A stretch of 64,000 nucleotides of DNA, from assembly GCA_965247115.1 (NCBI GenBank), contig CBDFGR010000003.1, forward strand, positions 1,632,001-1,696,000, given 5' to 3'. The notes beneath the pieces are model-generated. The model saw only the letters and a program-made list of their open reading frames with translations, was not told the origin of the DNA and did not search any database. Origin of the DNA: Myxococcota bacterium. Its GTDB lineage: Bacteria > Myxococcota_A > UBA9160 > SZUA-336. Shown piece by piece: positions 12,484 through 40,871 of the stretch (position 1 is its first letter; the number at the start of each line of letters is the position of its first letter). A program made the position numbers and the translations under genes.

Positions 12484-12676
12484 CCCGCCGCGTCTCTCGA
12501 CAGCGGCCTCCTCCGCTGTCGCGGTTACTTCCCTGCTTCTCAGAGCTCTGCCTCGCTACGCTCGCCTGGGCCGCAACCTGCCTGTGAGGGGCGACTTGCG
12601 CAAGCCCATTCCGCTCAGTCGTGGGCTCACCGGATGGTAGAGTGGCTCCTCCGCTTCTGGAGACCGACGAACTGAC

Positions 12677-13990
12677 GTGACGCGCTATCGGGGGATCCAC
12701 GAGCTCTACCGCGAGGACCCGGTCGGGGCCGACCGGAAGATCTGGGGTCGAAGGGCCGATCCGTTGACCCGTCGTGGCTTTCTCAACGGCGCAGGCTTGC
12801 TGGCCCTTGGCTCCTGCATCGGAGCCTCGATCCCGTTCTCGCACAGGCTGCCCGCTGGACTCATTCCCGCGGCTCTGGCTTCTTCGGACGAGCGCTTCGA
12901 AATTCCAGGGAAGGAGCCGGGCCTCGTCATCCTGAATGATCGTCCGCTCAACGCGGAGACGCCCGCTCACCTGCTGGACGATGACGTCACCCCCGCAGAG
13001 CGTCTGTTCGTCCGGAACAACGGCTTGCCGCCCCAGACCGTCGATCCGAGCGCCTGGCGCCTTATCGTAGAGGGCGAGTCGATCGAGACAAGGCGCACGT
13101 TCTCGCTCGGGGAGCTCGAGCGAGAGTTTGACCGGCACACCTATCGACTCCAGCTCGAGTGCGCGGGGAACGGACGGAGCGAGTTCTACCCGCCAGCAAG
13201 CGGGAATCAATGGACTACAGGAGCGGTGGGCTGCGTCGAGTGGACCGGCATTCGGGTGCGCGACGTGATCCGTTCGTGCGGCCTCCGCCCCGACGCGGTG
13301 TACGTGGCGTATTACGGTGCGGACCGACACCTGAGTGGAGACCCGGACGCCGTGCCGATCTCGCGCGGGGTGCCCCTTGAGAAGGCGCTGCAGGACGAGA
13401 CGCTGCTCGCGTGGTCGATGAACGGGCTGGTGATCCCTCCGTTGCACGGTCCTCCACTCAGGCTCGTGTGTGGAGGCTGGCCCGGCTCGAGCTCGGGCAA
13501 GTGGCTCACGAAGATCGCGGTTCGGGACCGCGTTCACGACGGGCCAAAGATGGGAGGCAAGAGCTACCGCCTCCCCTGCGGTCCCGTCGCAGCCGGCGTC
13601 GACGTGACCGACGACCAGATGTGCATCATCGAGTCGATGCCAGTGAAGTCGCTACTCACCTTCCCCAGGTCTGGGAGCGTACATGCGCTCGCGAAACCGC
13701 TGGCTCTGCGCGGTCACGCCTGGGCGGGAGAGCGCTCCACCGCACGCGTCGACGTCTCGATGGACTTCGGCCAGACCTGGCTGCCCTGTCAGCTCGATGC
13801 TGCGCCCAACCGTCTGGCGTGGCAGCGCTTCAGTACCGCGCTCCGCTTCCCGAGGCCCGGCTACTACGAGCTGTGGGCACGGGCGACGGACGATAGAGGC
13901 CGCGCTCAACCGATGGTCGTCCCGGGTTGGAACCCAAGGGGGTACCTGAACAACGCCACCCACCGGATCGCGGTCCAGGTCACAGCGTGA
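12677..13990 (+). CDS. Tat-exported sulfite oxidase family molybdoenzyme (SorA-like sulfite dehydrogenase)
   Basis: Tat motif TRRGFL, FVRNNG, LECAGNGR (Mo-ligand Cys), HGPPLRLVCGGWPG, WNPRGYLNNA. Confidence 0.9.
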   Translation: MTRYRGIHELYREDPVGADRKIWGRRADPLTRRGFLNGAGLLALGSCIGASIPFSHRLPAGLIPAALASSDERFEIPGKEPGLVILNDRPLNAETPAHLLDDDVTPAERLFVRNNGLPPQTVDPSAWRLIVEGESIETRRTFSLGELEREFDRHTYRLQLECAGNGRSEFYPPASGNQWTTGAVGCVEWTGIRVRDVIRSCGLRPDAVYVAYYGADRHLSGDPDAVPISRGVPLEKALQDETLLAWSMNGLVIPPLHGPPLRLVCGGWPGSSSGKWLTKIAVRDRVHDGPKMGGKSYRLPCGPVAAGVDVTDDQMCIIESMPVKSLLTFPRSGSVHALAKPLALRGHAWAGERSTARVDVSMDFGQTWLPCQLDAAPNRLAWQRFSTALRFPRPGYYELWARATDDRGRAQPMVVPGWNPRGYLNNATHRIAVQVTA

Positions 13991-21797: not shown

Positions 21798-22088
21798 TCA
21801 CGCGTCGAACGGCTCGGAAAACCGAAAGCTGGGGGCGCCCTCGAGCAGTGCTCCGAAATTCGCAAGAGCTCCGGTCTCCTCTCTCCAGGCCAGGTACTTG
21901 TCGTAGTGAGGCTTGGAGTCCCAGAGCTCGACGAGGACCACGGTCTGGCCGTCGTCGTTGAGGTAGGGCGTGACGGATTGACAGCCCTCGTAGGCACGCG
22001 TCTCAGGCAGGAGCTTGGCAAGAAGCCCTTTTAGCTCCTCGACAGCACCCGCCTTCGCCTTCGCTTCCAGAATCACCAACGTAGGCAT
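21798..22088 (-). CDS. Antibiotic biosynthesis monooxygenase (ABM) family protein
   Basis: LPETRAYEGC, LVELWDS, YLAWREETG; ATG at 22088 with AGGAG RBS. Confidence 0.85.
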   Translation of the reverse strand: MPTLVILEAKAKAGAVEELKGLLAKLLPETRAYEGCQSVTPYLNDDGQTVVLVELWDSKPHYDKYLAWREETGALANFGALLEGAPSFRFSEPFDA

Positions 22089-22191
22089 CTTCTCTCTCCT
22101 CTTTGATGGATTCCCAGTACTTACCGGTCGTCTCTGGGCCATGATATCCTACTACACAGATGGACTAGTTTGGTACTCGGAGGCGGGAATT

Positions 22192-22725
22192 ATGGGCACC
22201 AGACCCGTAAGACGATTGGTGACCGGGCATGATGAAAACGGCAAGTCCAAGTTCCTCATGGATGGGGATGCGCCCTGTGTTCTGGCGATGGACAAGATGG
22301 GCAATCTGACGGTGACGGATTTGTGGGAGACGACCGATAGCCCCGCAGATAATACCGGCGAGAAAGACAACACCGATCGGCCAGTACACTTGGAGCCCGA
22401 AAAGAGAGGCACTGTCTTCCGCGTCGTGGACTTTCCGCCGGATTCAGCGTGGAAGGACGGCGCCGACGGCGGGGACGCGTTCGACCAGCTTCAGGCCCGT
22501 CACGTCGCCGACGGGGACCACAGTGATCCGGCGATGCACAAGACGGATTCGGTGGACTACGCGCTGGTGCTGGACGGCGAGATCTGGGCGGTGATGGATA
22601 CCGAGGAACGCCTCATGCGGGCGGGTGATGCGATCATTCAACGGGGAACAACTCACGCCTGGGCAAACAAGACCGATCGATTCTGCCGCATGATGTTCGT
22701 GCTGTGCGGCGCCGATCCGGTATGA
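22192..22725 (+). CDS. Cupin domain protein
   Basis: RRLVTGHDENGKS, MHKTDSVDY, IQRGTTHAWAN. Confidence 0.88.
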   Translation: MGTRPVRRLVTGHDENGKSKFLMDGDAPCVLAMDKMGNLTVTDLWETTDSPADNTGEKDNTDRPVHLEPEKRGTVFRVVDFPPDSAWKDGADGGDAFDQLQARHVADGDHSDPAMHKTDSVDYALVLDGEIWAVMDTEERLMRAGDAIIQRGTTHAWANKTDRFCRMMFVLCGADPV

Positions 22726-22746
22726 CGCGGATGGTGGTCCTCTCCT

Positions 22747-23592
22747 TCACAGTTTAAAGAGCCGGGCGGCGTTGCCGCCGAGCAGCTTCTCGCGTACGGC
22801 TTGTTTGAGCTCCATTTCCTGCCACTCGGCGACCGCGCGCCCGATGTCGAAGGCCGGCCAGTCGGTGCCGAAGAGGATCTGGTCCTGAAGCACGCTGTTC
22901 ATGAAGCGGTACATGACTTCCCAGCCACTGCCCGGTGCGGCGATGTACTTGGGCGAGAGGCCGCCGAACTCGAGGTAAACGTTTCTGTGCTTGCGCGCCA
23001 CGGCAACCATCTCTGCAGTCCATGGCCAGCCGGCGTGGCAGGCGACCAGATCGAGCTCAGGAAACGCGCATGCAATCTCGTCCAAGAGCATCGGGTGGTC
23101 ATTTCCAAACGGGAGGGTCGTGCCATAGTTGATGCCGGTATGAACAAAGACAACAAGACCCAGCTCTGCCGCCTTGGCGTAAACCGGATAAAAGCGGCTG
23201 TCGTTGATCCCCAGATGGAAGAATGCCGGTTGAATATTGACGCCGAGAAATCCCCGCTGGGCGCATTCCGCGACCTGAGCAACGGTGCGCATGATATGCG
23301 CAGACTGCTGCTGCGACACCGTCCCGACGCCCCGATAGCGCGGTTCATCGGCGACCATGTCGCTCACGGCCAGATTCATCTGATCGGCGTACTCGCCGAA
23401 TTCGAATTCGGCGTGGACCAGCGCGATGTCCACTTTGTATTCGTCTAACGCAGCCTCGAGTTCCGCGCGACCTGCGTCATCGCGATCGAATACGTCGAGC
23501 ACAGCACCATAGCCCTCCACCAGCTCGGGCGGCCGATCGTGCGTGTCATCGCGAAGATCGACCGGGAGGCGCACTCGGGCATCGACAAGCAT
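22747..23592 (-). CDS. Amidohydrolase_2 family protein
   Basis: PVYAKAAELGLVVFVHTG, ACHAGWPW, ILFGTDWP, LLGGNAARL. Confidence 0.88.
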   Translation of the reverse strand: MLVDARVRLPVDLRDDTHDRPPELVEGYGAVLDVFDRDDAGRAELEAALDEYKVDIALVHAEFEFGEYADQMNLAVSDMVADEPRYRGVGTVSQQQSAHIMRTVAQVAECAQRGFLGVNIQPAFFHLGINDSRFYPVYAKAAELGLVVFVHTGINYGTTLPFGNDHPMLLDEIACAFPELDLVACHAGWPWTAEMVAVARKHRNVYLEFGGLSPKYIAAPGSGWEVMYRFMNSVLQDQILFGTDWPAFDIGRAVAEWQEMELKQAVREKLLGGNAARLFKL

Positions 23593-23675
23593 GTGTTCCT
23601 GCAGGATAGGGGGAACGGGTCTCTGTCGCCGACCATGGTACCTCATAACAGCGCCCATCCGGGCAAGATATCTCC

Positions 23676-25300
23676 ATGGCCGAAGCTGACACGAAAACGG
23701 CTACACTGTCCCCGAAAGCGCCCGGTACCACAACGCTACCGGCTGCCTCTGACAAACGACTGGCACTCGACGTTTTCGAGGAGCAGCTTCGCGCGTCTCC
23801 GCGCAGAGACTTCTTCGCTTTCGCGAAGGCAAGTACACCTATTCGGAATTCGCCGAGGCCTACCTCAGGCTCGCTGGCCGCATGGCGGCGTATGGCATAT
23901 CGCGCCACGACATAGTGCCGACCTTCTTTCCAAACAGCGGACCGGCTGTCGAGGTCTGGTTTGCGCTGATGCACCTTGGCGCGGTGTGGGCGCCGGTGAA
24001 TACGGAGTTTCGCGGGGAGCAGCTCATCCGCGCGCTTAATCTGATGGAATCGGACACACTGATCGTCGATGCGCCCTATCTCGGCCAGATCATCGACGTG
24101 CTGCCGCTTTTGACGCACGTCAAGAGGATCGTCGTGCACGGCTCCGATAAAGTGCTGACAGACGATAAGGTCGAGTTCGCAGGCTACGAGCAGTTACCCG
24201 ACGGAGAGGCACCAGCCCGTACGGACATCGAGCGTGCCGAAGTGGCGGTGATTCAATTCACCTCGGGCTCGACGGGCGTTTCCAAGGCCGTGCAACTCTC
24301 TCACGGCTATCTGATTGGGCAGGGGAGGATGGTCGCCCAGGTCTTCGGGCTCAACCAAGATGACGTGCTGTTCTGCCCGTTCCCGTTGTACCATTGGGAT
24401 GCCACCGTCGGCACGGTAGTGGCCGCGCTCAGTAGTGGCTGCACGGCGGCCCTCGCACCAAAGTTCAGCGTATCGCGCTTCTGGGAGGACATTCGCTATT
24501 TCGGTGCCACGGTGTTCGACTTCATGGGTGCGACGCTGACGTTCCTCTACCGCTTGCACGAGCGTCCGGACGACGGCGACAATCCCGTACGTCTCGCCTG
24601 GGGCGTGCCGATGCCCGAATTCAAGGCCGCCTTCGAGCGCCGTTTCGACCTCACGCTGATCGAAGGCTACGGCAGCACCGAGGGTGGCATCGCCGTATTC
24701 CAGTCCCCGGACAAGCGCTATCCCGAGAGCAGCTGTGGAGAGGTCTTGCCAGGTTGGAATCTCAAGATCCTCGATGACGTTGGCAACGAAGTGCCAGCGG
24801 GTGAAGTAGGCGAGATAGTCAGCAAGCCGGACGATCCGACCCAGATGATGAACGGCTATTTGAAGTTGACCGACGTGAACGCCGAGCTCATCCGCGACGG
24901 TTGGTATCTCACAGGTGATCTTGGCCGGGTCGATGAGGCGGGCTGTCTGTACTTCGCTGGACGCAAGAAGGATGTCATTCGCCGCCGTGGCGAGAACATG
25001 TCGGCGCTCGAGATCGAAACCGCAGTCGGCAGCCACTCGGCCGTCATGGAGGTCGCAGCCTATGGCGTGCCCAGCGAGTTCTCGGAGGAGGAAGTCGCTG
25101 TCGCGATCGTCATTCGAGAAGGTTCGGCGCTCACAAAGCAAGAGGTGCTGGACCACTGCGAAGGCAAGATGGCACGTTACATGATCCCCGAGCACATCCT
25201 GTTTCTCGACAAGCTGCCGAAGACGCCGACACAGAAGGTCGCCAAGGCCGATCTCAAGAGACTACACGCGGACATCATCCAGGAGGGCAAATCCGCATGA
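23676..25300 (+). pseudogene. CaiC-like acyl-CoA synthetase (AMP-binding) with a 1-nt frameshift near 23813, or a sequencing error
   Basis: FTSGSTGVSK, YGSTE, TGDLG, RRRGEN, LPKTPTQK; the N terminus (..SPRRDF) joins ..RFREGKYTYSEF only if one base is added. Confidence 0.75.
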
Positions 25301-27174
25301 CGCAACGAGAGTTCAAGCCGAAGGTATTGGCTCTAACAAGCCGGTTGGTGCGAAGTGTGTCCGCGGTCGTCATAGCGCTTGGCAGCCTTTCCTGCGCTGA
25401 TTCGCAGGAAGATGTGCAGGAGCCTCAATCCGACCAGTCTTATTACATATCCATGCGAGATGGAGTTCGGCTTGCTGTGAGCATCTACTTTCCAGAACGC
25501 AAGATGCCGACGAGAAAGTTGCCCACGATCTTGATCCAGACACGATACGGACGGGAATGGGTATTCGAGATCGGCGAGCGGCAGGGTGGCTACGAGTACT
25601 TTCGGGATTCGGGAGCTGTGATCGCGATCGTCGACGACCGCGGATCGACCGCCTCAACGGGGTCGCGCACTCTTGAAATGGGTCCTGAGCTGATTCGGGA
25701 CATGGATGAAGTCATTGATCATTTTGCTGAACGACCCTGGTCGAATGGTCAGGTCTTTACCACCGGCGTCTCCTATATGGCGGATACCGCCGATCTATCG
25801 ACCGGCAGTCAGCATCCGGCGTTGAAGGGCGCGATCGTCCGCGAGGCGGATTTCGACTTCTACCGGCATCTGTTCAATCCAGGGGGTGTGGCCAATGATC
25901 TGTTCATTCATTCCTGGGGCACGTGGATACTGACCATCGACACGGGCCAAACGGAGCAGGACGGGGTCTCGATCGACTGCGTCAAGCGGGTGGCCGACTG
26001 CGCCCACTTTCGGCCGAATGTGATGCCGGTCAAGGACGACCAGGACATGAGCCAAATGCGCTCATCGTTGAGGGATCGCGTGCGTTGGCCCCCCGATGCC
26101 TACGACAGCGCAGCGTTCCGCGATGACAAGGGAGCGAACGGGTTCACGATCTTTCAGTCCAGCCCTTCTGCCTATCTGGACTCCATCTCGGCAAGAGCGC
26201 TACCGGTACAGTACTGGGGGAGCTGGATCGATGCTGGGACGGCGGCCGGAGCATTGGACCGTTACCGGTCGCTTCCGCACGTCCCGATGGAGGTGTGGAT
26301 AACGGGGAATGATCATCTCAACGAGCAGAATGCCGATCCATTCTTTCCGGAGCGAGAGTCGCCTTTTCCACCAATAGATGAGCAGCGCGAGCTGATGCGC
26401 TCATTCTTCGATCGGCTCGGAGCTGGCGAAGAGATCCAGCGAACGATCCACTACTACGTGCTGGGGACTGGCACATACAGGCAAGCCTCGACCTGGCCGC
26501 CGGCGGACCTGAGCGAGACGTTTCTTTTCTTTGCCGACGGAAGTCAGTTGACGACGAATCGCCCGGAACATGGTGAGGCCGACTTTTACGAAGTCGATTT
26601 CACGGCCACGACAGGCGATTACAACCGCTGGACAACGCAGTTCGGAGCTCCACCGGACTACCGCGATCGACGAGAGGAAGACAAGAAGTTGTTCGTCTAT
26701 ACCGGGGATCCCGTGGAGCAGGACATGGAAGTCGCCGGTACTCCGTACGTTACGTTGCATGTCAAGACGAGAACGACCGACCCGGCGTTCTACGTGTATC
26801 TGGAAGATGTCGCGCCGGATGGTTATGTCACGTACCTGACGGAAGGCCAGTTTCGCGCGGTCAATCGCAAGATCGCGGAGCCTGAATCGCTACCGTATGA
26901 CCAAGGGCCGGATGTGCATACCTATGCCCGCGAAGATGCGCAACCGATGAGGCCTGATCGTATTGAGCAGGTACGGTTCTCGCTGTTTCCACTGGCCGCC
27001 AGGATCAAGAAGGGTCACCGCTTACGCGTTGCGATCGGCGGCGCGGATGGTGACCGGTTTCGCCGATATTCTCATGGGCAGCCGGAGTCGTTTCAGATCC
27101 ATACCGGCGGAGCAACTCCAAGTGGTATTACGGTCCCGCTAGGCCCATGGCACGAGGGAGGCGGAGAAACGTAG
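25297..27174 (+). CDS. CocE/NonD family serine hydrolase, probable lipoprotein
   Basis: MRDGVRLA, QTRYGR, PWSNGQV, GVSY nucleophile, KKGHRLRVAI; lipobox-like SLSC. Confidence 0.88.
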   Translation: MTQREFKPKVLALTSRLVRSVSAVVIALGSLSCADSQEDVQEPQSDQSYYISMRDGVRLAVSIYFPERKMPTRKLPTILIQTRYGREWVFEIGERQGGYEYFRDSGAVIAIVDDRGSTASTGSRTLEMGPELIRDMDEVIDHFAERPWSNGQVFTTGVSYMADTADLSTGSQHPALKGAIVREADFDFYRHLFNPGGVANDLFIHSWGTWILTIDTGQTEQDGVSIDCVKRVADCAHFRPNVMPVKDDQDMSQMRSSLRDRVRWPPDAYDSAAFRDDKGANGFTIFQSSPSAYLDSISARALPVQYWGSWIDAGTAAGALDRYRSLPHVPMEVWITGNDHLNEQNADPFFPERESPFPPIDEQRELMRSFFDRLGAGEEIQRTIHYYVLGTGTYRQASTWPPADLSETFLFFADGSQLTTNRPEHGEADFYEVDFTATTGDYNRWTTQFGAPPDYRDRREEDKKLFVYTGDPVEQDMEVAGTPYVTLHVKTRTTDPAFYVYLEDVAPDGYVTYLTEGQFRAVNRKIAEPESLPYDQGPDVHTYAREDAQPMRPDRIEQVRFSLFPLAARIKKGHRLRVAIGGADGDRFRRYSHGQPESFQIHTGGATPSGITVPLGPWHEGGGET

Positions 27175-27176
27175 TG

Positions 27177-27632
27177 TCACAAATGACCGAGTCCCGGGTC
27201 AGTCGCCCAGCCTTTGGCTAGCGGTACTAAATAGAACATCTCGACCCGGCGAGACGTGAACTTCCACTCGCCGTCGATCTTCTCGTACTCGTCGTGAAGC
27301 CGGCCGGCCCCGATCATGGAGTCGTCACCGCGGGTCCCACGATTCTCCAGCGAGCACCATCCCTTGGCGCGCTTGCCGTCGAGGTGTATGACGTGGTTCG
27401 TGAAGAAGGGCTTCACTTTGAGCGGCCAGGTCGTTGTGTAGAATTCCTTCATGGCTTCGTGGCCCTCGATCAGGCCGCGACCCAGCGAGCTGAAATCTAC
27501 AGAGCCGTCTTCCGTAAACAGGTTCACAAGCCGATCGGCGTCCTGAGCCTCGATGGCCAGGCCGTACTCATAGGTGAGCTCGCGGATCTTTTCACGGTCC
27601 CAGAGTTCCTGGACCATCTCTTCGTGGGTCAT
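27177..27632 (-). CDS. NTF2/SnoaL-like domain protein
   Basis: LWDREKIRELTYEYG, LFTEDG, YEKIDGEWKFTSR. Confidence 0.85.
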   Translation of the reverse strand: MTHEEMVQELWDREKIRELTYEYGLAIEAQDADRLVNLFTEDGSVDFSSLGRGLIEGHEAMKEFYTTTWPLKVKPFFTNHVIHLDGKRAKGWCSLENRGTRGDDSMIGAGRLHDEYEKIDGEWKFTSRRVEMFYLVPLAKGWATDPGLGHL

Positions 27633-28951
27633 GGGCCTAGTTCTCCTAGTGCGGATACCGGCAAGCGTACAGCAGCCGGTGGACTGTGGGTGACCGCCAA
27701 GCTGCTCCGGTCCCTCACAATGCTTGCCAGCTCGAGCAGAATTTCTACCGTCGGCGGGCCCAGCGTCGGTCCGACGTTGCTGTTGAACTGGATCGCCACG
27801 GCAAATCGGTGATCAGGGAAGTACATCATTTCCGACCGGTAGCCGGGGAAGAATCCTCCGTGTCCGTAAGCGAGGCCGAACGGAGTCTGCCGAATGAAGA
27901 CACCGAGTCCGTATCTCACCCCATCGTCGGCATCGACCCCGTCGAGCATCTCGGGCAGGAGCGAGGCGGGGAAGACATCTCCTTCGTAGACGAGCTTCGC
28001 CCAGCGCGCGAGGGCCACCGCGGTCGTGGCGAGACCGCCCCCGGTCCATTCGAACTGAGGATTGATGACGAACACGCCGTCTCTGAGCGCTTCCGTTGCC
28101 GCCCCGGCCCCGCTCGTGGGGACCTGCGCCGTGTCGTCACCATAGCCGTGCAGCGCCGCTTCCATCGACGTTCCCGGGTATCCCTGCGCCAGCCGCTCGA
28201 TGCGTCGCGAGTCCGAGGGGATGATGTCAGCGAGGTCGAAGGGCTCCAACACTCGGCGGTGGAGCTCGCTGTAGTATCCGGAACCAGTACTTCGTTCGAA
28301 GACCATGCCCAGAAGGATGTAGTTCGTATCGGTGTAGTAGAAGTCCGTTCCGGCGGGAAACAGAGCCTCGGCGCCGACCTCGTACTGCACGAGCTCTTCT
28401 GGCCGCCAGACGCGCTCTGGAGCCTGGAAGAGATCATGGATGAACTCAGGATCCACAACGTAGTCGGGAATCCCGGTCGTGTGGTTCATGAGCATCCGGA
28501 CGGTGAGGTCGTCTGCGTTGGGCAGCCCCGCGTACCAAGCATGGTCTCCGAGCCACTTCCCGACGGGATCGTCCAGGCCGAGCCGCCCTTCTCCGACAGC
28601 GCCTAGCGCCAGGGCCGAAACGAAGGTCTTTCCTATGCTCCCGGCAAGCAGCCGATGGTCGGGCCGCATCGCCGTGCCTCTGCTCTGGTCCGCCAGACCC
28701 ACCGCCAATCCGTAGGAGCTGCCGTCGGCAAGGGCGACACCGAAGGTGGCTCCTGGAAACGAGCCGGCGCTATGAAGCTCTTCGAGCTTGGCTTGGAGCG
28801 CTACCCGAAGCCGGTCTGCGTCCGTCTCGTGCCCGCAGGATGCGCCGACAACCAAAAGCGCGGTCACGAGGACGAAAGATCTGAACACTCGAGGGAGCAC
28901 TCCTCTGGAACGTCTTTCGTGCAGTGTGGACGTCCGACTCGATGGGCTCAC
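27629..28951 (-). CDS. Serine hydrolase (beta-lactamase/D-aminopeptidase family)
   Basis: SxxK (GSIGK), LMNHTTG, YTDTNYILLG, YGHGGFFPGY. Confidence 0.88.
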   Translation of the reverse strand: MSPSSRTSTLHERRSRGVLPRVFRSFVLVTALLVVGASCGHETDADRLRVALQAKLEELHSAGSFPGATFGVALADGSSYGLAVGLADQSRGTAMRPDHRLLAGSIGKTFVSALALGAVGEGRLGLDDPVGKWLGDHAWYAGLPNADDLTVRMLMNHTTGIPDYVVDPEFIHDLFQAPERVWRPEELVQYEVGAEALFPAGTDFYYTDTNYILLGMVFERSTGSGYYSELHRRVLEPFDLADIIPSDSRRIERLAQGYPGTSMEAALHGYGDDTAQVPTSGAGAATEALRDGVFVINPQFEWTGGGLATTAVALARWAKLVYEGDVFPASLLPEMLDGVDADDGVRYGLGVFIRQTPFGLAYGHGGFFPGYRSEMMYFPDHRFAVAIQFNSNVGPTLGPPTVEILLELASIVRDRSSLAVTHSPPAAVRLPVSALGELGP

Positions 28952-33529: not shown

Positions 33530-33602
33530 CGGGTTCTGTGCCCACAGTCTACACGTGGCTCGAACCCGGGAACGAATCCACCGTCGCGCCCTGAGTCGTT
33601 GT

Positions 33603-33644
33603 CTCCCCGGGAGGGACCCGAATCCCCGACATGGTGGCTAACAG
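33603..33644 (-). repeat. Degenerate copy of the tRNA-Asn 3' half (att-site relic)
   Basis: ctccccgggagggacccgaatccccgacatggtggctaacag matches 40799-40840 at 37 of 42 positions in direct orientation and ends at the anticodon loop. Confidence 0.85.
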
Positions 33645-33686
33645 TTTGCGCCGCGCGTTCTTCTCGGCGGCCAAACGCGGCGAGAA

Positions 33687-33919
33687 TTAGAGGTGCTCTG
33701 GGTTCGTAACGGTGCGGGCCTCGCGGACCTCGCCCGTGTTCACGGTGGAGGCGGGCTCGAATAGCAAGACGTGAGCCTCGTGTGTAGCGACTGGTGCCAG
33801 ACAAACTCTCCCTCGAGCTTGCAGATCTTGACGTGCTGCCCGTTCAGCTCTGCGACGATTCTCGGGTTCCAGTGATCTTCGAAGCGCGAAAGCTTGTCAG
33901 CGAGATTGACCTTCTCCAT
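33687..33919 (-). pseudogene. Cupin (mannose-6-phosphate isomerase-like) with internal deletion
   Basis: MEKVNLADKLSRFEDHWNPRIVAELNGQHVKICKLEGEFVWH jumps out of frame to PVATHEAHVLLFEPASTVNTG; the central metal-binding segment is missing. Not in the ORF track. Confidence 0.8.
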
Positions 33920-34551
33920 CGCGGTCAGAGCTCCTGGCGTCGCTCCTCCAGGCTCGCATCGATCCCGCCTCCGAGTTCCATGAAGGCGAGATCTGTACCG
34001 GCTCGTTCAGAAAACGGGGTGACGGATAAGACGCCTTGAGCTCGAGCGGTTGCGGAGGCTAGAGAGAGACTGAGTAAAACGGGGGCCGTCAGCCACATCG
34101 GTGTAGAGAGGTTATTGGAGCGCACCGCGGACTCCCTCCCGAGATATGGACGGGCCGATAGATAGTGAACGCTTCAGTATATACGGACGGAGTCAGCTCA
34201 GGCTCGGCCCCGGCGAAGCTAGCGGCCAGTCTCAGGGGCGGTTAACAGATCGTTCCGCCGAGATTCCGGCCGTATCTTTCAGGCGTCTCAACGTGCTGAT
34301 TCCTAGGGCTTTTCATGAGTGGCCGGGTTCCAGGGATCTCCAGGCTTGTCGCCCGATTTCCACCGGCTAGCCACGATGAGGCGACTGAACGCGGCACCAG
34401 CACAGCTGGTAGCGCTCTCGCCGCTGGCGTATGATGCAAGACGTATTTCGCGACGAACCCGTCAATGCGTGAGTGACGCCGCGCCGCGCCGGTCCGCGTT
34501 TTTGATGGGCCCAGCCGAGGCTGGAACCATCATTCGCACGAGGGGAGAGCA

Positions 34552-35781
34552 GTGCCAAGAGCGATCAGAGATCTCATGCCATCGGATCTCGAGTTCCAGA
34601 TGTTCGTTCTCGATGAGCTAGCCGATGAATTGATCAAGCAGGGCGCAGACGTTCTAAAGCTCACGATCGGCGTCACAGAACAGCCCATGCCCCAGAACGT
34701 GCTCGCGCGCATGGTCGACAAGCTCAACGATCCCGGATTCGTGCGCCGGGTGTATCCGGAGGGGCTTCCCGAGCTTCGCGAGGCGATCGCGAAATTCTAC
34801 GATCGTCGCCACGGGACAGATGTCTCGGCTGAAAATGTCATCGTCAATACCGGTAGTTCTCCCATCTTCCGCAACATCTTCCAGCTCCTGTCAGGGCCCG
34901 AATTCGAGATCATGATTCCGCGGCCCTATTACGCTTTGTACTTGTACTGCGCGACGTTGGCTGGCGCCAAAGTCAAGTTCTATGACATCGACGTCAACAC
35001 AAAGCGCGTCGACATGGATTCTTTCCGCCGGAACTTTTCACCGAAACGCACATCCCTCGTGGTGATCAATTCACCAGGCAACCCGGTAGGAAACATCGTG
35101 ACGCTCGACGAGATGCGAGATATCTATGAGATCGTCGATCACAACGCCTACGTCTTGAACGACGAGATCTACAACAACATGATGTTCTACGACGAGTTTC
35201 GCACGCCCCTGACGGCGTTGCCCCAGCACGAGGACATCACGATCGTAGCCAACAGTTTCTCGAAGGGTTACCGGATGTACACCAAGCGTGTTGGGTTCGC
35301 GATTCTGCCCGAAGAGCTGCAGAAACATCTGCGAGTCATTCAGCAGCACACGCTGCTGTGTACCGATCCGTGCTACCAGTACGGAATGATCGCCGCGCTC
35401 GAGGACGAGGAAAGCCCGGAGCAGCTCACCCGCCTCTATCGGTCCCGCGCGGAGTACACGACTCAACGCCTTACTGGTACGGGCTGTGAGCCGATTGCCG
35501 CCGAAGGTGGTTTCTACGCCATGCTGAGGTGCAAAGACTGGAATGCTATGCACGGGTTCGAGTCGTCAAAGGAGCTCGCGCGCGACATCCTGGAGAAGGT
35601 CCACGTTGCTGTGGTTCCTGGAACGGATTTCGGCGTACCAGATGATCTGCGTCTGGCCTTCTGCAATGCCCGCTACAGCGAGGGTATCGATCGGCTGCGG
35701 GAGTACTTCACCTCCTCTGCTGCGAGTGGGCGAACCGCCGGGACTCAGCGCAAGGCGGCAACCGCGAGTGCCTACGCGTGA
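34552..35781 (+). CDS. PLP-dependent aminotransferase class I/II
   Basis: GLPELREAIA, VINSPGNPVG, DEIY, NSFSKGY..RVGF, VAVVPGTDFG. Confidence 0.9.
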   Translation: MPRAIRDLMPSDLEFQMFVLDELADELIKQGADVLKLTIGVTEQPMPQNVLARMVDKLNDPGFVRRVYPEGLPELREAIAKFYDRRHGTDVSAENVIVNTGSSPIFRNIFQLLSGPEFEIMIPRPYYALYLYCATLAGAKVKFYDIDVNTKRVDMDSFRRNFSPKRTSLVVINSPGNPVGNIVTLDEMRDIYEIVDHNAYVLNDEIYNNMMFYDEFRTPLTALPQHEDITIVANSFSKGYRMYTKRVGFAILPEELQKHLRVIQQHTLLCTDPCYQYGMIAALEDEESPEQLTRLYRSRAEYTTQRLTGTGCEPIAAEGGFYAMLRCKDWNAMHGFESSKELARDILEKVHVAVVPGTDFGVPDDLRLAFCNARYSEGIDRLREYFTSSAASGRTAGTQRKAATASAYA

Positions 35782-37667
35782 CCAGCGATCTCGCAGAGCC
35801 AGTGGAGGCGTTTATCAGTGACGAAGCGCCCACTACGCCGAACGAACCGCTTAGCGTTCAACGCGCGATAGTCCTTGCTGCGGGTCGAGGCAGTCGCCTC
35901 CATGCATTGACGGGCGATGCCCCCAAGTGTCTGACCGAAATCGGCGGCGAGCCACTGCTCGAGCGCGCGTTACACGCGCTTGGCTCCCAAGGCATTACCG
36001 AGGCGGTGATAGTCATCGGCTACATGGGTGAGATGGTTCGCGATCGCATCGGCTCGCGTATCGCCGGAGTCGACATTCGCTATGTCGAGGCGCCCGACTA
36101 TGCAACGAGCAACAACATCCGCTCGTTGTGGGACGCACGGGACTACCTCGATCAGGACCTGGTTCTGCTCGAGGCCGATGTCGCTTTTGATCCGTCGGTC
36201 ATCGGTGCCTTACTCGCGCACTCCGGTAGCAGCGCCGCTGTCGCCCCGTATGACCTGGCACTATCCGGAACCGTGGTGCGACGTGACCGCAACGGTCAAG
36301 TCACGAGCTTCATCCTCGGCGCCGACCAGGGGCCGCAGTTCGATACCACTGATACCTTCAAGACCGTCAACATCTACGTGCTACGCGAGCAGTTGTTGCG
36401 CGAGCACGTGGTCCCACGACTCTGCAATGTGATCGATGCTGGCGACGTGAATGAGTACTACGAGAGCATTCTCCGCGATTGTGTGGCCGACCGATCCTGC
36501 GGCATCGACATGGCTGCAGTCGACGTCTCGTCGAGTCGTTGGGCCGAAATCGATGACGATCACGATCTCGACGCTGCCGAGTTTCTCTTCCTGGACCGCG
36601 ACGCGCAGTTCGATCGCGTCCAGAAGCTGCACGGGGCGTACTGGCGCTACGGCTTTGTTGACCACTCGTATCTGTACAACATGCACTTCCCTCCCGCCGA
36701 AATGCTCGATGTGTTCCACTCCCATCTTCGGGAGATCGTGACGAACTATCCCGTCGCGCAGACCGAGCTAGCGCGCCTCGTTGCCAACTGGACCGGTGCC
36801 AATCCGGATCACCTGGCGGTGGCCAACGGTGCCGCAGAGCTAATCAAAATCCTCGGCAGGCAGTTCGAACGCCGGCTCACGATCCCGACGCCTTCATTCA
36901 ACGAGTATGAGGAGGTCATTGATCCGCACGAACTCAATCGCTTCGCACTCGATCCGAAAACCTTCGAATTGGATGTCGACGCTTTCGCAGATTCGGCCAT
37001 ACGCTGGAAATCCGACACCGCGATCATCGTCACTCCGAATAATCCTACTGCCTTGTCGGTGCCGCGCGACGATGTGCTCAAGCTGGCGCGCTGCCTCGAA
37101 GTTAATGACTGCCGATTGATCGTCGACGAGTCATTCATCGAGTTTTCCCGTACCGGGGTTGCCGGCAGCGTCCAAGAAATGGTCGGAAATTGCGCCAACC
37201 TCGTCGTCATCAAGAGTATGAGCAAGGTGTTTGGGGTCGCTGGTGTCCGACTTGGCTATCTGCTGAGCGCCGACCATGCGTTCATTGCGGCCGTCCGCTC
37301 CAGCTTGCCTATCTGGAATATCAATGGACTGGCTGAGGAGTTTCTACGCACTGTTGGTCGCTATAGACGTGAGTTCTCTGAGAGCTGTGACCTGACTCGA
37401 GTCAGCAGCCAGGGGTTCTACGCCGACCTGCGGGGACTGCCAGGCATCGAGCCGATTGAGCCAGACGCGAACTTTATCCTCTGTAAACTGACGAACCCTT
37501 CCACCTACGGCCCGGAAATCGCACGCCGTCTGTACGTCGAGCACAACATTCTCGTGAAGGATTGCGCGGCCAAGAGTATGCCGGATGCCGATCGCTACCT
37601 GCGGATAGCATCGCGCACGCCAGCGGAGAATCACCACCTCGTTCAGGTGCTCGCAGCTCTGTTGTAG
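35778..37667 (+). CDS. Fusion: LicC-like phosphocholine cytidylyltransferase domain + HisC/CobD-like PLP enzyme
   Basis: IVLAAGRGSRL...PKCL, TSNNIRSLW, LLEADV, WAEIDDDHDL; then VANGAAELI, TPNNPT, VDESFIEF, IKSMSKVFGVAGVRLGY. Confidence 0.88.
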   Translation: MTSDLAEPVEAFISDEAPTTPNEPLSVQRAIVLAAGRGSRLHALTGDAPKCLTEIGGEPLLERALHALGSQGITEAVIVIGYMGEMVRDRIGSRIAGVDIRYVEAPDYATSNNIRSLWDARDYLDQDLVLLEADVAFDPSVIGALLAHSGSSAAVAPYDLALSGTVVRRDRNGQVTSFILGADQGPQFDTTDTFKTVNIYVLREQLLREHVVPRLCNVIDAGDVNEYYESILRDCVADRSCGIDMAAVDVSSSRWAEIDDDHDLDAAEFLFLDRDAQFDRVQKLHGAYWRYGFVDHSYLYNMHFPPAEMLDVFHSHLREIVTNYPVAQTELARLVANWTGANPDHLAVANGAAELIKILGRQFERRLTIPTPSFNEYEEVIDPHELNRFALDPKTFELDVDAFADSAIRWKSDTAIIVTPNNPTALSVPRDDVLKLARCLEVNDCRLIVDESFIEFSRTGVAGSVQEMVGNCANLVVIKSMSKVFGVAGVRLGYLLSADHAFIAAVRSSLPIWNINGLAEEFLRTVGRYRREFSESCDLTRVSSQGFYADLRGLPGIEPIEPDANFILCKLTNPSTYGPEIARRLYVEHNILVKDCAAKSMPDADRYLRIASRTPAENHHLVQVLAALL

Positions 37668-37701
37668 CGCCCCTGAAAGGGCGCGGCCTAGGGAGAGGAC
37701 G

Positions 37702-38607
37702 ATGGAACGCGACGCCGAGAACGCCGCTCTCATGCAACACATAGAGCGGACGATTCCGCCGATGAACATCGCAGATGCCGAGCGACTGTTACGCGAGGCG
37801 AAGGGGATCTTCGATGACCACGGCGTGGTCTTCTTTCTCCGACAGGGCACCTGTCTCGGTGCGGTGAGAGATCAAGCGCTGATTCCGTGGGACGATGACC
37901 TGGACCTTGGCTCGATCATGGGCTTGCACGGCTTCACCGAGGAAGCGATCGAGCCCACGGTCGAGGCGTTTCGAGGCAATGGATGTTACGTCGAGGTTCT
38001 CCCCGAAGGCCTCTACACCTCGGTCAAGATCATGAAGTACCGGATCAGGATCGACTGGCAGTGCTACCGGGTGGTTAAAGGTACGATCGCTCATTACCCC
38101 GGCGTGCCATTTCCTGTCAGCCTATTCACCGAATTGAAGGAGGTCGACTTCATCGGCGGAGAATATCGCGTTCCCAGTCCGCCCGAGGAGTACCTCCGCT
38201 ACAAATACGGACCCGACTGGGTCACGCCCAAGCAAGCCGGCTACGAGAAAGATGTCCTCGACAACATGCCCGAGGGAACCGTTCCCGGCCGAGCCGGCTG
38301 GCTCAAGCAGTTTCTGGCTGTTCACCTTTCTCCACGCCGGACCGCGGTTCTGTTGGTGCTCGACGGCGACGGAATCCCAGTCCCGAATGCGAAGGTCCTG
38401 GTCGCGGGCATGTGTCGAACCAGGGCAAATCGAAAAGGCTACGCAAGGTTCTATCTGCCCGGACCAGACGAATACGCCCTGGCAATAACGGCGAACGGCC
38501 GCGAGGAGGTGCTCTATGAAGAGACACTGGCTCCGGGGAAGAAATATGTCTATCGACCTGACGCCAGCCAGTCTGCGGGGAGATATTTCGTGCTCGCCGA
38601 GGAATAG
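37702..38607 (+). CDS. LicD/fukutin family phosphotransferase with a C-terminal beta-rich domain
   Basis: GTCLGAVRDQALIPWDDDLDLG, PEEYLRYKYGPDWVTP. Confidence 0.85.
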   Translation: MERDAENAALMQHIERTIPPMNIADAERLLREAKGIFDDHGVVFFLRQGTCLGAVRDQALIPWDDDLDLGSIMGLHGFTEEAIEPTVEAFRGNGCYVEVLPEGLYTSVKIMKYRIRIDWQCYRVVKGTIAHYPGVPFPVSLFTELKEVDFIGGEYRVPSPPEEYLRYKYGPDWVTPKQAGYEKDVLDNMPEGTVPGRAGWLKQFLAVHLSPRRTAVLLVLDGDGIPVPNAKVLVAGMCRTRANRKGYARFYLPGPDEYALAITANGREEVLYEETLAPGKKYVYRPDASQSAGRYFVLAEE

Positions 38608-38647
38608 AGCTGCGTAGTTGACCGACCTCTGGACCTTCTCGTTCTGG

Positions 38648-39233
38648 TCAAGCCGATTGCGCGGCCTTGGTGATCGTCGCGAACTCAGAGGCCACGCTGG
38701 GCCTTGCACTCATCGTCGTCATCCAGCGCTGTAGGTGCGTCCCCTGCGAGGGCGCGCAACCCAGGAATGAGGAAAAACTCACCATCATGAGCGTACCTAT
38801 GTCGGCGACACGCTCCTCGAATACCCTCCTCGGCATACGAGACGGCGTCGGAATCCCTATCCGATGTATTGGGCTTTCGAAACACCTCGCGGATCAGAAC
38901 CGTGACAAACTCCGTCAACTCGAAGTCCGCCTGGTCTTCGAGGACGCGACATCGCGCTCGTCCCTCTGGATCGGACGGCATGAGCGGAACGTCTGGGTAG
39001 CGCTCTTCCAGATAGTCGCAGATGACGGTTGAATCAGGGATCACCAGTTCGCCATCGATCAGCACAGGGACCTGTCCGCGTGGACTCAGGGCGAGAAAAT
39101 CATCGGGCTTCTCGCCCCACAGACTCGACCGAGTCCAGGCCACATCGTGGAGTTCGTAGGGGAGTCCCTTCTCCGCGAGCACGATGCGGACCTTCGCGCT
39201 GAATGGGCTGAGTGTTCCGGACCAGAGCTGCAT
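38648..39233 (-). pseudogene. Glutathione S-transferase with internal deletion and frameshift near 38815
   Basis: SPFSAKVRIVLAEKG, PRGQVPVL, DSTVICDYLEE; C terminus VADIG...RWMTTMSARPSV is in another frame. Confidence 0.8.
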
Positions 39234-39243
39234 GGTGTTCTCC

Positions 39244-39849
39244 TTATCCGCGATCAGCCGCGGTGGACAACAGCTGATCGAGTGCACGCCGCGCATGGGC
39301 GAACGCGTCGCCCTCATCGAGAAGCTCGCGGCGAAGATTGGCTTCCTGCGCAAGGGCGTGAATCTGAAATGCAAGTGTCTCCGGAGCGACATTTGCGCCG
39401 AACTCACCCAGTCGCTTCGCAAGTCGCGCCTGTTCGTTCAGCTCCTGAAGAAACCTTCGGGTATGACCAGCCACAGCGTCGCGGACAGGACCGGGTCGTC
39501 CTGCGAACGCTTGCCCTGCCGCAGCGAAAAAGCAGCCGCCGCGGTAGTCGATCGATTCGAGATGCTCGAGCCATGCGGCACAGAGGGCAGCCAGTCGAGG
39601 CAGGCCCGGTTCGGCCGCGGCGCCCGCGGCGACAAGGCTGATCGCATACGAGGACGCCGCGGCATCGACCACTTCGAGTTGGAGCGCCTCCTTGGATTCA
39701 AAGTGTGCGGCAACGCCAGCCTTCGTCAGACCTACCTCGCTGGCTATTCGGCTGAAGGAAAGGCTCTCGAGCCCTTCCGCCGTACTCAGATCCGTCGCTG
39801 CGGCGACGATCTCTCGCCGGCGACGCGCACCGTGCGTCTCTTCTTTCAT
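39244..39849 (-). CDS. TetR/AcrR family regulator
   Basis: EGLESLSFSRIASEVGLTKAGVAAHFESKEALQ, GGCFFAAA. Confidence 0.9.
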   Translation of the reverse strand: MKEETHGARRRREIVAAATDLSTAEGLESLSFSRIASEVGLTKAGVAAHFESKEALQLEVVDAAASSYAISLVAAGAAAEPGLPRLAALCAAWLEHLESIDYRGGCFFAAAGQAFAGRPGPVRDAVAGHTRRFLQELNEQARLAKRLGEFGANVAPETLAFQIHALAQEANLRRELLDEGDAFAHARRALDQLLSTAADRG

Positions 39850-39856
39850 TGACACC

Positions 39857-39878
39857 AAAGTACACGATCGTATAGTTT
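39857..39878. promoter_or_regulatory. Probable TetR operator
   Basis: Imperfect 22-bp palindrome AAAgTAcA-CGATCG-TaTAgTTT just upstream of the tetR start, in an AT-rich divergent region. Confidence 0.55.
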
Positions 39879-39928
39879 TTACAATACCTTCGTATCACTC
39901 GACGTGCCCCTCTCGAAAGGGTCATTCC

Positions 39929-40057
39929 ATGCGACTCCATACCCGGGGCCAACACACGCTGGCGACCGCTTTGATGCTCACCGCGATCGCAGGCGCGACT
40001 GCCTGCGACGCCAATAGGATCGTCCTCCGCCAGGCGATGGGAGGGTTCGTTGACTGA
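39929..40057 (+). pseudogene. Truncated lipoprotein remnant divergent from tetR
   Basis: Signal peptide and lipobox ATAC, then a stop 16 residues after the Cys. Confidence 0.35.
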
Positions 40058-40138
40058 CTGGGCGAGGGTTCGCTCGGGTTTCTCGGACACTGCGGTTTCC
40101 CGAGGCATGAGAGAGGGCCTAACGAGAGGACGAGATCT

Positions 40139-40489
40139 ATGAACCTGAAGAACGTCTACCTGTTGCTCACGATTGTCGGAGCACTCATTCCCTACGTCTT
40201 TTTCGTGCAGTTTTTCGCGGCCGAAGGCTCGTCGCTAGGCACCTTCATCCCAGCACTATTCGCAAACGGGGCCGCAGGCGGGTTCAGTGCGGATCTGCTG
40301 ATCACATCCATAACCTTCTGGATCTTCCTGTTCGCCCAGCGGACCCCACGGATCTGGGCGTACATTGCGGTGAACCTGGTGATCGGCCTTTCGTGTGCAG
40401 TGCCTGCGTATCTCTACGTGCAAGAGCGGTCACGGGAGGAGCAGCGAAGCCCTGATGTCTCCGCGCACGCGAGGGCAGGTGAACGGTGA
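40139..40489 (+). CDS. DUF2834-like membrane protein
   Basis: YLLLTIVGALIPY, LFANGAAGGFSADLLI, IGLSCAVPAYLY. Confidence 0.75.
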   Translation: MNLKNVYLLLTIVGALIPYVFFVQFFAAEGSSLGTFIPALFANGAAGGFSADLLITSITFWIFLFAQRTPRIWAYIAVNLVIGLSCAVPAYLYVQERSREEQRSPDVSAHARAGER

Positions 40490-40795
40490 GCGACAGCCGA
40501 GTCACAGTGGCGAGCAGCGAAGCTCCCATAACCTTCGGCGATAGGCTTCGGGCGTGGCGCAAGCAACGCACGCTGCGTCCCGCAGAAGAGCTCGGAGCTG
40601 GAAGGCGCCAAAGGCCCGAAGGCGGTTGTTGAAGAAATCAGGGTGGCGATGGGAGACAGAGCTTCCGGCTCTTCAAGACACCTAAGGAGCTCGGGGTCTG
40701 AAGCTGATGTGGATCGGACTAACCGCTCGTGAGGCGCTTCGCACACTGAACGCGGTTACAGCGATGGCAAGAATCCGCCACGTGACTGGATTCTT

Positions 40796-40871
40796 TGGCT
40801 CCCCGGGAGGGACTCGAACCCCCGACCTAGTGGTTAACAGCCACCCGCTCTACCAACTGAGCTACCGAGGA
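40796..40871 (-). tRNA. tRNA-Asn (GTT)
   Basis: TCCTCGGTAGCTCAGTTGGTAGAGCGGGTGGCTGTTAACCACTAGGTCGGGGGTTCGAGTCCCTCCCGGGGAGCCA: 76-nt cloverleaf with CCA end. Confidence 0.97.

Follow-up and report, generated by a model that had tools for sequence, protein, structure and literature searches.

Three adjacent aminotransferase, cytidylyltransferase-PLP and LicD genes on a Myxococcota genomic island: a possible kinase-free phosphoethanolamine pathway

Which head group is activated, and onto which acceptor is it transferred, by three adjacent genes of a Myxococcota bacterium that recall part of a lic operon? The genes occupy positions 34552-38607 of the window, i.e. the whole stretch of 64,000 nucleotides that was analysed, and all three open reading frames are intact on the + strand. 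Gene A (34552-35781) encodes an aminotransferase of 409 amino acids from a GTG codon (401 from an alternative ATG start), gene B (35778-37667) a fusion of cytidylyltransferase and PLP domains of 629 amino acids, whose start overlaps the stop of A in GTGA, and gene C (37702-38607) a LicD protein of 301 amino acids, which follows B after 34 nt and is preceded by a GGAGAGG ribosome site. The lic1 systems of H. influenzae and S. pneumoniae (LicA-D) likewise combine a LicC-type cytidylyltransferase with a LicD-family transferase, whereas the LicA kinase and the LicB transporter are missing from the cassette, both at the locus and among its recurrent neighbours, and its donor is likely made de novo. 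Further additions relative to lic1, and to the Mf1 enzyme discussed below, are the class I aminotransferase and a transthyretin-like domain on C.

The original prediction described an intact three-gene unit on an island, and both points are borne out. The GC content of A-C is 57-59%, compared to 65.6% for the contig, and the genes lie beside a tRNA-Asn(GTT) gene (40796-40871, - strand), the likely integration site, of whose 3' end a degenerate copy (42 nt, 88% identity) forms an att-like scar at 33603-33644; this copy is missing from the contigs of two other strains. In the runs X7 and X9, the stop of C leads to the tRNA-Asn 3' end over 36 different bases, and the GST, TetR and DUF2834 genes (38685-40489) are absent from their contigs; these genes are passengers outside the cassette. 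No integrase was seen within 33550-40800. The Pfam-checked neighbours comprise a TPP enzyme, GST, TetR, DUF2834, an APH-type phosphotransferase, an amidohydrolase, SnoaL and beta-lactamase-fold proteins, and among them there is, as had been anticipated, no licA, licB, glycosyltransferase or export gene. Short RNA contigs fall on A, B and the A/B junction in two runs of one study (on C there is none among the pieces listed), but since one of these runs also covers the non-coding positions 34049-34211, they do not establish transcription.

A survey of gene order in other genomes, which had been proposed along with the prediction, likewise agrees with a self-contained, portable unit. The order A-B-C recurs in tandem at 41 of the 79 genome loci collected via A and at 31 of 80 loci collected via C as a separate anchor, and homologous triplets occur outside capsule loci. 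B and C are found without A at 14 of the 80 C-anchored loci, so that A is an accessory to the cassette. Otherwise the loci have no conserved neighbour. The cassette proteins share 53-88% identity across uncultured bacteria from five phyla. Viral contigs yielded 32 loci, all with distant LicD and no long match above 28% identity to C; a plasmid collection held no close A (59 records, all below 60%, with the listed rows at ~30%), and B-type genes reached only 30-39% among 15 listed of 70. All parts of the cassette have known relatives, and it is their combination that is uncharacterised; we found no account of it in the literature, with most subscription papers lying outside our coverage.

The activating enzyme is B, which matches PF12804/PF00483 at 30-178 and PF00155 at 328-625. 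Its N-terminal domain carries K50, E132, D134, E229, E257 and D259, and a profile of this domain and 27 relatives retrieved PntC of T. denticola first (E 4e-46), followed by LicC (3e-31), IPCT (6e-22) and, lower, NDP-sugar enzymes, a ranking that is biased by a few PntC-like rows in the profile; motifs of LicC and PntC are also found in B itself. Synthesis of an NDP-sugar, the contrary case named in the original prediction, would fit the single-sequence NCBIfam and PDB matches of this domain, which include the sugar-phosphate enzymes AglF and MurU, and the presence of A without B at 25 of the 79 A-anchored loci could mean that A, B and C are unrelated passengers. Given the grouping with PntC and LicC and the tandem order obtained from two anchors, we regard both versions as very improbable. 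According to an excerpt of PMC6697681, PntC holds the primary amine of AEP by E104 and E196, while the choline-specific LicC has D105 and D192. Both glutamates are kept in B, and Glu occupies the two positions in 77 of 79 and 79 of 79 distinct B orthologue domains, so that the pocket as read from the alignment matches a small primary amine. The Pnt protein of T. denticola (Tde1415, PntC-AEPT) is a cytidylyltransferase-PLP fusion too and contains the closest structural relative of the N-terminal domain of B, but its PLP domain is a class V AEPT and that of B has the class I/II CobD fold.

This C-terminal domain (H286-G287, K483, R609) is most similar to PDB 6OUX (E 3e-33), which we take to be the Sulfurospirillum serine-phosphate decarboxylase SMUL_1544, ahead of CobD (2e-22) by 35 bits and of HisC (2e-16) by 55 bits. 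Relative to 6OUX, its closest solved relative, B keeps the PLP lysine K483 and the C-terminal arginine R609; its best NCBIfam family is CobD (TIGR01140, above hisC), whose cut-off of 290.55 is not reached by the 174.6 bits of B. Ethanolamine phosphate has been proposed as the product of SMUL_1544 (in an excerpt of PMC4585668), and Cj1436 decarboxylates serine phosphate (PMC12409886). These proteins and CobD share fold and motifs with the B domain and decarboxylate O-phospho amino acids, as is predicted for it, yet they stand alone, feed cobamide linkers or capsule amides and are only about one third identical to it. FrbH of FR-900098 biosynthesis also has a fused PLP decarboxylase domain. B is likened to FrbH, by description and not by sequence, in its combination of PF12804 with a class I/II PLP domain, and we predict from its domains and residues that it is a phosphoserine decarboxylase / phosphoethanolamine cytidylyltransferase of FrbH-like architecture. 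FrbH, however, is a nucleotidyltransferase that activates an amino-acid phosphonate, with cytidylylation first (PMC6697681), which counts against the reaction order and substrate proposed for B. Its substrate is 2-amino-4-phosphonobutyrate, for which the context of B gives no support: frbA-E and pepM are missing, and a LicD gene comes next. Serine phosphate and threonine phosphate cannot be told apart as substrates of B from sequence alone.

The donor is probably CDP-ethanolamine, as indicated by the PntC-like glutamates of B together with the distribution of two other enzymes. Choline kinase (PF01633) has no match in this genome (98% complete), and PEP mutase exceeds its cut-off in none of the 40 other triplet genomes, which points to a phosphate ester and not a phosphonate. 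The earlier claim that PEP mutase is absent holds for the locus, where there is no pepM or ppd as known from the Pnt pathway, but fails for the genome, which carries an unlinked pepM cluster on contig C2, and this counts against the phosphate-ester donor. Another head group would be aminopropanol phosphate (from threonine phosphate), serinol phosphate (made from DHAP) or else a phosphonate, for instance AEP, the latter formed from phosphonoalanine by A and B in the order of FrbH. CobD and HisC folds catalyse reactions of these kinds. Serinol phosphate is produced by Cj1437 (PMC12409886), class I aminotransferases have been linked to phosphonoalanine (in an excerpt of PMC8942020), PEP mutase is present in 16 of 28 genomes having A but no B, and on rhizobial plasmids, B-type genes of distant kinship are found close to pepM. 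Nevertheless, the link between A and pepM comes from two or three lineages only and is modest within one order (five of seven genomes with A versus five of 26 without), and the lead of 6OUX over CobD and HisC and the 40 triplet genomes speak against this reading, which we consider improbable. The more unusual head group that had been read from the second PLP enzyme is less favoured as well, given the accessory nature of A and the pocket of B.

A itself matches PF00155 only and is, by its sequence, a distinct and conserved family of class I PLP aminotransferases, with the PLP lysine K238, the carboxylate arginine R367 and an invariant T244-K245-R246. An equally invariant S103 occupies the position of a lysine in Thermus AspAT (K101, presumably the distal-carboxylate lysine), which, together with 195.8 bits against a cut-off of 550, sets A apart from the aspartate aminotransferases of subgroup Ib. 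A is no canonical SerC either, which has a class V fold, so that any SerC-like role would be non-homologous. No serC model scores above cut-off in this genome, but a class V aminotransferase adjoins serA and probably compensates for it, so that A is probably not needed as a substitute. As a working assignment, which we hold with some reserve, A may be an accessory transaminase that replenishes the phospho-amino acid precursor. Against this count the serA neighbour, an inferred pocket that looks hydrophobic in alignments (F15, M17, F18, L268, L269), and the phosphonate genomes, in which A adjoins LicD, methyltransferase or cytidylyltransferase genes rather than pepM. A homologue of A is encoded by Lyngbya sp. 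PCC 8106 (WP_009784216.1). In cyanobacteria, the relatives of A are accompanied by methyltransferases similar to sarcosine/dimethylglycine N-methyltransferase and, in one case, by a sodium/solute symporter, neighbours that suggest a DMSP methionine aminotransferase; DsyG-like proteins without activity are reported in an excerpt of PMC11306096. A predicted structure of A (pLDDT 55.6, shallow alignment) was set aside, and a query of the ESM Atlas with an A homologue returned generic aminotransferase clusters only.

C is the sole LicD match in the genome (PF04991, 50.2 bits, cut-off 22.6) and likely a phosphotransferase of LicD/FKRP type that would transfer a phospho-alcohol from a CDP donor. In its predicted model (pLDDT 93.9), FKRP is the top structural match (Z 16.1, rmsd 3.0 over 164 residues), and the catalytic D64, D66 and D68 (DxDxD) and the downstream D118 align to it and are at least 90% conserved in 112 rows. 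FKRP/fukutin shares this fold and the acidic residues, but FKRP works in the lumen with CDP-ribitol and carries a stem domain, whereas C is a cytoplasmic protein. The original prediction of a soluble-looking protein with an extra beta-rich C-terminus holds: there is no signal or transmembrane segment (highest 19-residue hydropathy 1.27), and residues 213-290 are modelled as a transthyretin-like beta-sandwich (PF13620 at 219-281, below cut-off). A linker helix (196-214), basic within an acidic protein and with a charge of at least +2 in 91 of 99 rows, suggests membrane contact. The C family appears to swap donor modules, to judge from relatives (~44-52% identity) within pepM-ppd-aepT-pntC operons at L258 and L259 and from others paired with IPCT-like (inositol-phosphate-type) cytidylyltransferases at L284 (best matches 4JD0, 2XME, 4MND), with similar genes at L264, L285, L288 and L290. 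The pepM-ppd-aepT-pntC operons make CMP-AEP, an isosteric donor.

Taken as a whole, the cassette may constitute a kinase-free phosphoethanolamine pathway, a reading that we put forward tentatively and whose reactions we infer. The C-terminal domain of B would decarboxylate O-phospho-L-serine, its N-terminal domain would convert the product with CTP to CDP-ethanolamine, and C, working on the cytoplasmic side, would move phosphoethanolamine onto the hydroxyl of an acceptor, for which a membrane lipid or glycolipid is the likeliest candidate. Such a lipid acceptor, to which we give a nearly even chance, is indicated by the basic helix, by B-type genes that adjoin a membrane CDP-alcohol transferase in place of C (L156, L278, L289), and by the only NCBIfam match of C, Mf1 of Mycoplasma fermentans (NF045866, E 6e-14, 52.7 bits, below the cut-off of 225), which, in an excerpt of PMC11982090, transfers phosphoethanolamine from CDP-ethanolamine to the glycolipid glucosyl-diacylglycerol. 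Against it count the weak amphipathicity of the helix in C (moment 0.27), which is moreover absent in seven of 106 rows (among them L080, next to A), and the fact that most characterised LicD enzymes are glycan-directed.

Modification of glycans is indeed the usual role of LicD enzymes, and lic operons may do without glycosyltransferases. A glycan acceptor has a rather low probability in our view, and its particular form, in which C would act as in Lic systems and decorate a precursor glycan (LOS, capsule or lipid-linked repeat unit) that is yet to be exported, a lower one still. FKRP as top structural match and the LicD-like genes in PntC neighbourhoods tied to cell-wall glycans (PMC6697681) argue for it. 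Yet the surroundings of 159 loci show no recurrent glycosyltransferase or export family, and C at 66-81% identity spans Chloroflexota, Actinomycetota, Pseudomonadota, Acidobacteriota and Verrucomicrobiota, for which we know of no common envelope glycan; LPS in particular is argued against by hosts from monoderm as well as diderm phyla. The idea of surface modification or phage evasion finds no support: C lacks a signal and a membrane anchor, it is not accompanied by glycan genes, and its viral matches are distant.

A soluble acceptor, giving a phosphodiester osmolyte such as serine-phosphoethanolamine, is about as unlikely as a glycan. C would here join phosphoethanolamine to a small alcohol, e.g. 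L-serine, with A supplying the amino alcohol, a compatible-solute version to which we assign a slightly smaller chance. The solubility of C, the lack of co-travelling glycan or lipid genes and the solute-related neighbours of cyanobacterial A would suit it, and the membrane transferase paired with B is nearest to serine-accepting PssA or archaetidylserine synthase models, albeit below cut-off. The IPCT-like partners of C relatives do so too, as IPCT is the donor-forming step for the solute di-myo-inositol phosphate. That pathway also couples a cytidylyltransferase to CDP-alcohol transfer, but its DIPPS is a membrane PF01066 enzyme and its donor carries inositol, while that of the cassette is a predicted amine. 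However, CDP-inositol and PssA-like enzymes also form lipids, we know of no LicD enzyme that acts on a free small molecule, the helix hints at the membrane, and the triplet has neither a transporter nor an osmotic regulator as a conserved neighbour. A precedent comes from fish, in which serine-phosphoethanolamine is an abundant osmolyte (excerpt of PMC7555489).

If the phosphoethanolamine pathway is correct, it would represent a bacterial CDP-ethanolamine route that needs neither kinase nor uptake and moves as one unit among uncultured bacteria, and groups such as the SAR202-type Chloroflexota would have gained a Kennedy-like head-group pathway. As the three proteins are small and soluble, the question of the acceptor lends itself to direct testing. 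Should the product be a soluble osmolyte, which we think unlikely, the cassette would encode a novel route to a bacterial osmolyte, and C would be a LicD enzyme that works on a free small molecule. CDP-ethanolamine:serine phosphotransferase activity (EC 2.7.8.4) is known from animals, and to our knowledge no sequence is assigned to it; C would then supply this orphan activity with a first sequence and stand at the centre of a plug-in family, in which marine bacteria exchange one donor module (phosphoethanolamine, AEP or inositol phosphate) for another. Depending on the host, the C family seems to draw on either a phosphate ester donor or the isosteric phosphonate, and this choice bears on the allocation of phosphorus by ocean bacteria.

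The tightly packed three-gene unit of the original prediction consists of three intact open reading frames on the forward strand. These are A (34552-35781; Pfam class I/II aminotransferase), B (35778-37667; Pfam NTP-transferase and class I/II PLP domains), which overlaps A by 4 nt, and C (37702-38607; Pfam LicD with a weak PF13620 match). Their GC content is 57-59% (contig 65.6%), and they are bracketed by tRNA-Asn (40796-40871, reverse strand) and a 42-nt copy of its 3' end (33603-33644, 88% identical); no integrase was seen in a search of the cassette region. At least part of the stretch is present in 20 public runs from 10 studies, one of which may be where the window comes from. In contigs from two other runs the att-like copy is missing and the stop of C meets the tRNA end across 36 bases, which marks the intervening GST, TetR and DUF2834 genes as separable passengers. 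The longest GST frame (38685-39858) overlaps TetR; its true start is probably near 39234 and its C-terminal half looks truncated. A short cupin-like fragment (33740-33930, reverse strand; family judged by eye) lies between the att-like copy and A. Contigs from both RNA runs (one study) start at 34454, 98 bases upstream of A, with TATGAT about 20 bases further upstream; these contig ends hint weakly at a putative transcript start. A second low-GC stretch (about 22000-28000, 58-60%), with amidohydrolase, CoA ligase, CocE-like and SnoaL-like genes, is possibly another acquired block.

C is the sole LicD member in the host genome (98% complete), where the choline kinase family has zero matches. 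The noted lack of PEP mutase holds at the locus but not elsewhere in the host genome, where a cluster invisible from the window lies on the contig C2 (L021:8124-16724, about 1.126-1.135 Mb). It comprises a CDP-glycerol-type phosphotransferase, a fusion of pepM with an NTP transferase, ppd, an NTP transferase, a cupin/HTH protein, an iron alcohol dehydrogenase and MFS. The cupin/HTH protein, without a model match, is one that we take from its motifs to resemble methylphosphonate synthase or HEP dioxygenase. Among pepM loci of other genomes, a Dehalococcoidia region (L238:6136-14070) has the appearance of an island for an osmolyte or a methylated phosphonate; its genes are an O-methyltransferase, pepM, ppd, an AEP transaminase and a methyltransferase, followed by a panD-like gene and two further methyltransferases. 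Read from sequence, pepM-ppd-AEP transaminase genes also occur inside three hopanoid-like biosynthesis loci (L233, L234, L268), and a similar arrangement is mentioned in PMC8942020.

B was also searched for in 60 relatives, of which 31 belong to the same family; it had a single B-type match, at 47%, and no close one. The best 120 homologues listed are 77-100% identical for A and 75-100% for C. Scanning genomes with A yielded 91 relatives, of which 80 were kept, giving 79 loci; the A-B-C tandem is present in 41 (in one of them B is damaged, and another breaks off within C), while 25 have A without B, seven reach a contig end after A-B and five after A, and one has A with a truncated B. Tandem-locus hosts are, by record title, uncultured Chloroflexota, Pseudomonadota, Actinomycetota, Acidobacteriota and Verrucomicrobiota. 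In a metagenome scan with C (111 relatives found, 80 kept), 31 loci carry A-B-C, 25 B-C at a contig end and 14 B-C without A upstream (two of them with under 700 bases upstream); five lack B upstream and five lie at ends. When all ORFs in the 159 loci were clustered, no neighbour recurred apart from the three genes themselves and the shadow frames of these; the next-commonest families were general enzymes in at most 10 loci each. Of 260 genomes sampled evenly across the class of one host, three contain A, each time as part of the full triplet. In a quickly computed tree of 75 A sequences (four truncated or broken loci left out, the window and one cyanobacterial locus added), eight phylum labels require 11 changes and the label 'with B' only two, a pattern that fits transfer between phyla, although foreign contigs can sit in bins.

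A profile of the B N-domain and 27 relatives, itself containing a few PntC-like rows, has PntC as its top hit, ahead of LicC and IPCT, and places NDP-sugar enzymes further down; B itself has both the LicC-type YA.SNN..SL and the PntC-type LLE.D motif. According to PMC6697681, E104 and E196 of PntC hold the primary amine of AEP, while LicC has Asp there, fitting choline. Their counterparts in B, E132 and E229, are kept in 77/79 and 79/79 distinct full-length orthologue domains. In the C-domain, K483 and R609 are kept, as is, in 75/79, an N-terminal His-Gly of the kind that has a role in CobD. Its best match, well above CobD and HisC, is 6OUX, which we take to be the serine-phosphate decarboxylase SMUL_1544. 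Ethanolamine phosphate is the product proposed for SMUL_1544 in PMC4585668, and Cj1436 converts serine phosphate to ethanolamine phosphate (PMC12409886). In 40 genomes with the triplet, representing 40 of the 41 tandem loci, no PEP mutase exceeds the cut-off; the window's own genome, which does have one, is an exception. B would thus convert phosphoserine to CDP-ethanolamine, a reading we hold with good confidence; possibly it acts instead on threonine phosphate, or follows the order of steps of FrbH.

The predicted structure of C (pLDDT 93.9) matches FKRP over residues 12-182 (Z 16.1, rmsd 3.0, 164 residues) and, near background level, a transthyretin-like sandwich over residues 213-290 (Z 8.3, rmsd 2.8, 77 residues). 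No membrane anchor was found in its sequence. The linker helix is basic in 91/99 rows, mostly without acidic residues in 84/99, absent in 7/106, and weakly amphipathic in C itself. The family is compact (53 representatives at E 1e-30) and its context varied: a relative ends a pepM-ppd-aepT-pntC operon in two Chloroflexota genomes (L258, L259; methyltransferase added in one), and others adjoin PF01467 cytidylyltransferases (L080, L265), B in split form (L278, L279) or IPCT-like enzymes (L284 being the tested case). These contexts suggest that C is a soluble CDP-alcohol transferase whose donors can be swapped, a picture that lipid head groups and soluble phosphodiesters fit equally. What favours a lipid acceptor is Mf1 of Mycoplasma fermentans, the sole NCBIfam match for C, which uses CDP-ethanolamine on a glycolipid (PMC11982090); this analogy tips the reading towards a lipid, and a soluble osmolyte as product appears improbable. 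The suggested role in surface modification or phage evasion drew no support. In L156, L278 and L289 a B-type gene has two partners, a CDP-alcohol transferase resembling PssA and a methyltransferase (no LicD within the 14 kb read in L289), a candidate kinase-free PE/PC or serine-phosphodiester pathway.

B-C does not require A, and of 13 genomes in the class sample with a C-family gene, 10 are without it. A keeps the PLP lysine and the carboxylate arginine; the lysine that gives aspartate specificity is missing, and an unusual T-K-R is invariant. PEP mutase occurs in 16/28 genomes with A but without B, against 3/260 in the class sample, but in one alphaproteobacterial order the link is modest, at 5/7 with A versus 5/26 without. 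A C relative is present in 8/10 Chloroflexota genomes with A but without B. In a gammaproteobacterium (L072) A adjoins a membrane-anchored LicD (11547-12839), a member of a family of proteins of about 430 aa that also lies beside alphaproteobacterial pepM clusters (L232, L266, L270). Genomic context thereby appears to tie A to a LicD pathway, with support limited to two or three lineages. Cyanobacterial relatives (55% identity, 3/251 genomes) have methyltransferases as neighbours, with no B or C in the neighbourhoods examined. A phosphoglycerate-dehydrogenase-like gene in two of these loci favours A as phosphoserine supplier, whereas the host's own serA, which has a class V aminotransferase beside it, and the hydrophobic look of the pocket of A speak against it, leaving this role tentative; making the acceptor and tailoring are both rather unlikely. 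The cyanobacterial operon (L230:6053-13395; L101:4601-13819; L231:8953-11547) comprises a double methyltransferase, the A homologue and a methyltransferase, with a 2-hydroxyacid dehydrogenase and a CmcI-like gene in two of the three. It adjoins sodium/solute symporter or sphingolipid-like genes, is broken in L101 and L231, and is a candidate betaine- or DMSP-type pathway.

The cassette works similarly to the lic pathway but has no kinase, transporter or choline pocket, and similarly to the pnt pathway but has no linked pepM; it is a member of neither. Our literature search, with subscription literature mostly outside its reach, found no study of A-B-C; each part has a characterised relative, while the combination is uncharacterised. 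The cassette is real, intact and widespread, and represents CDP-activated head-group transfer in a new form, with CDP-ethanolamine as its likely donor.
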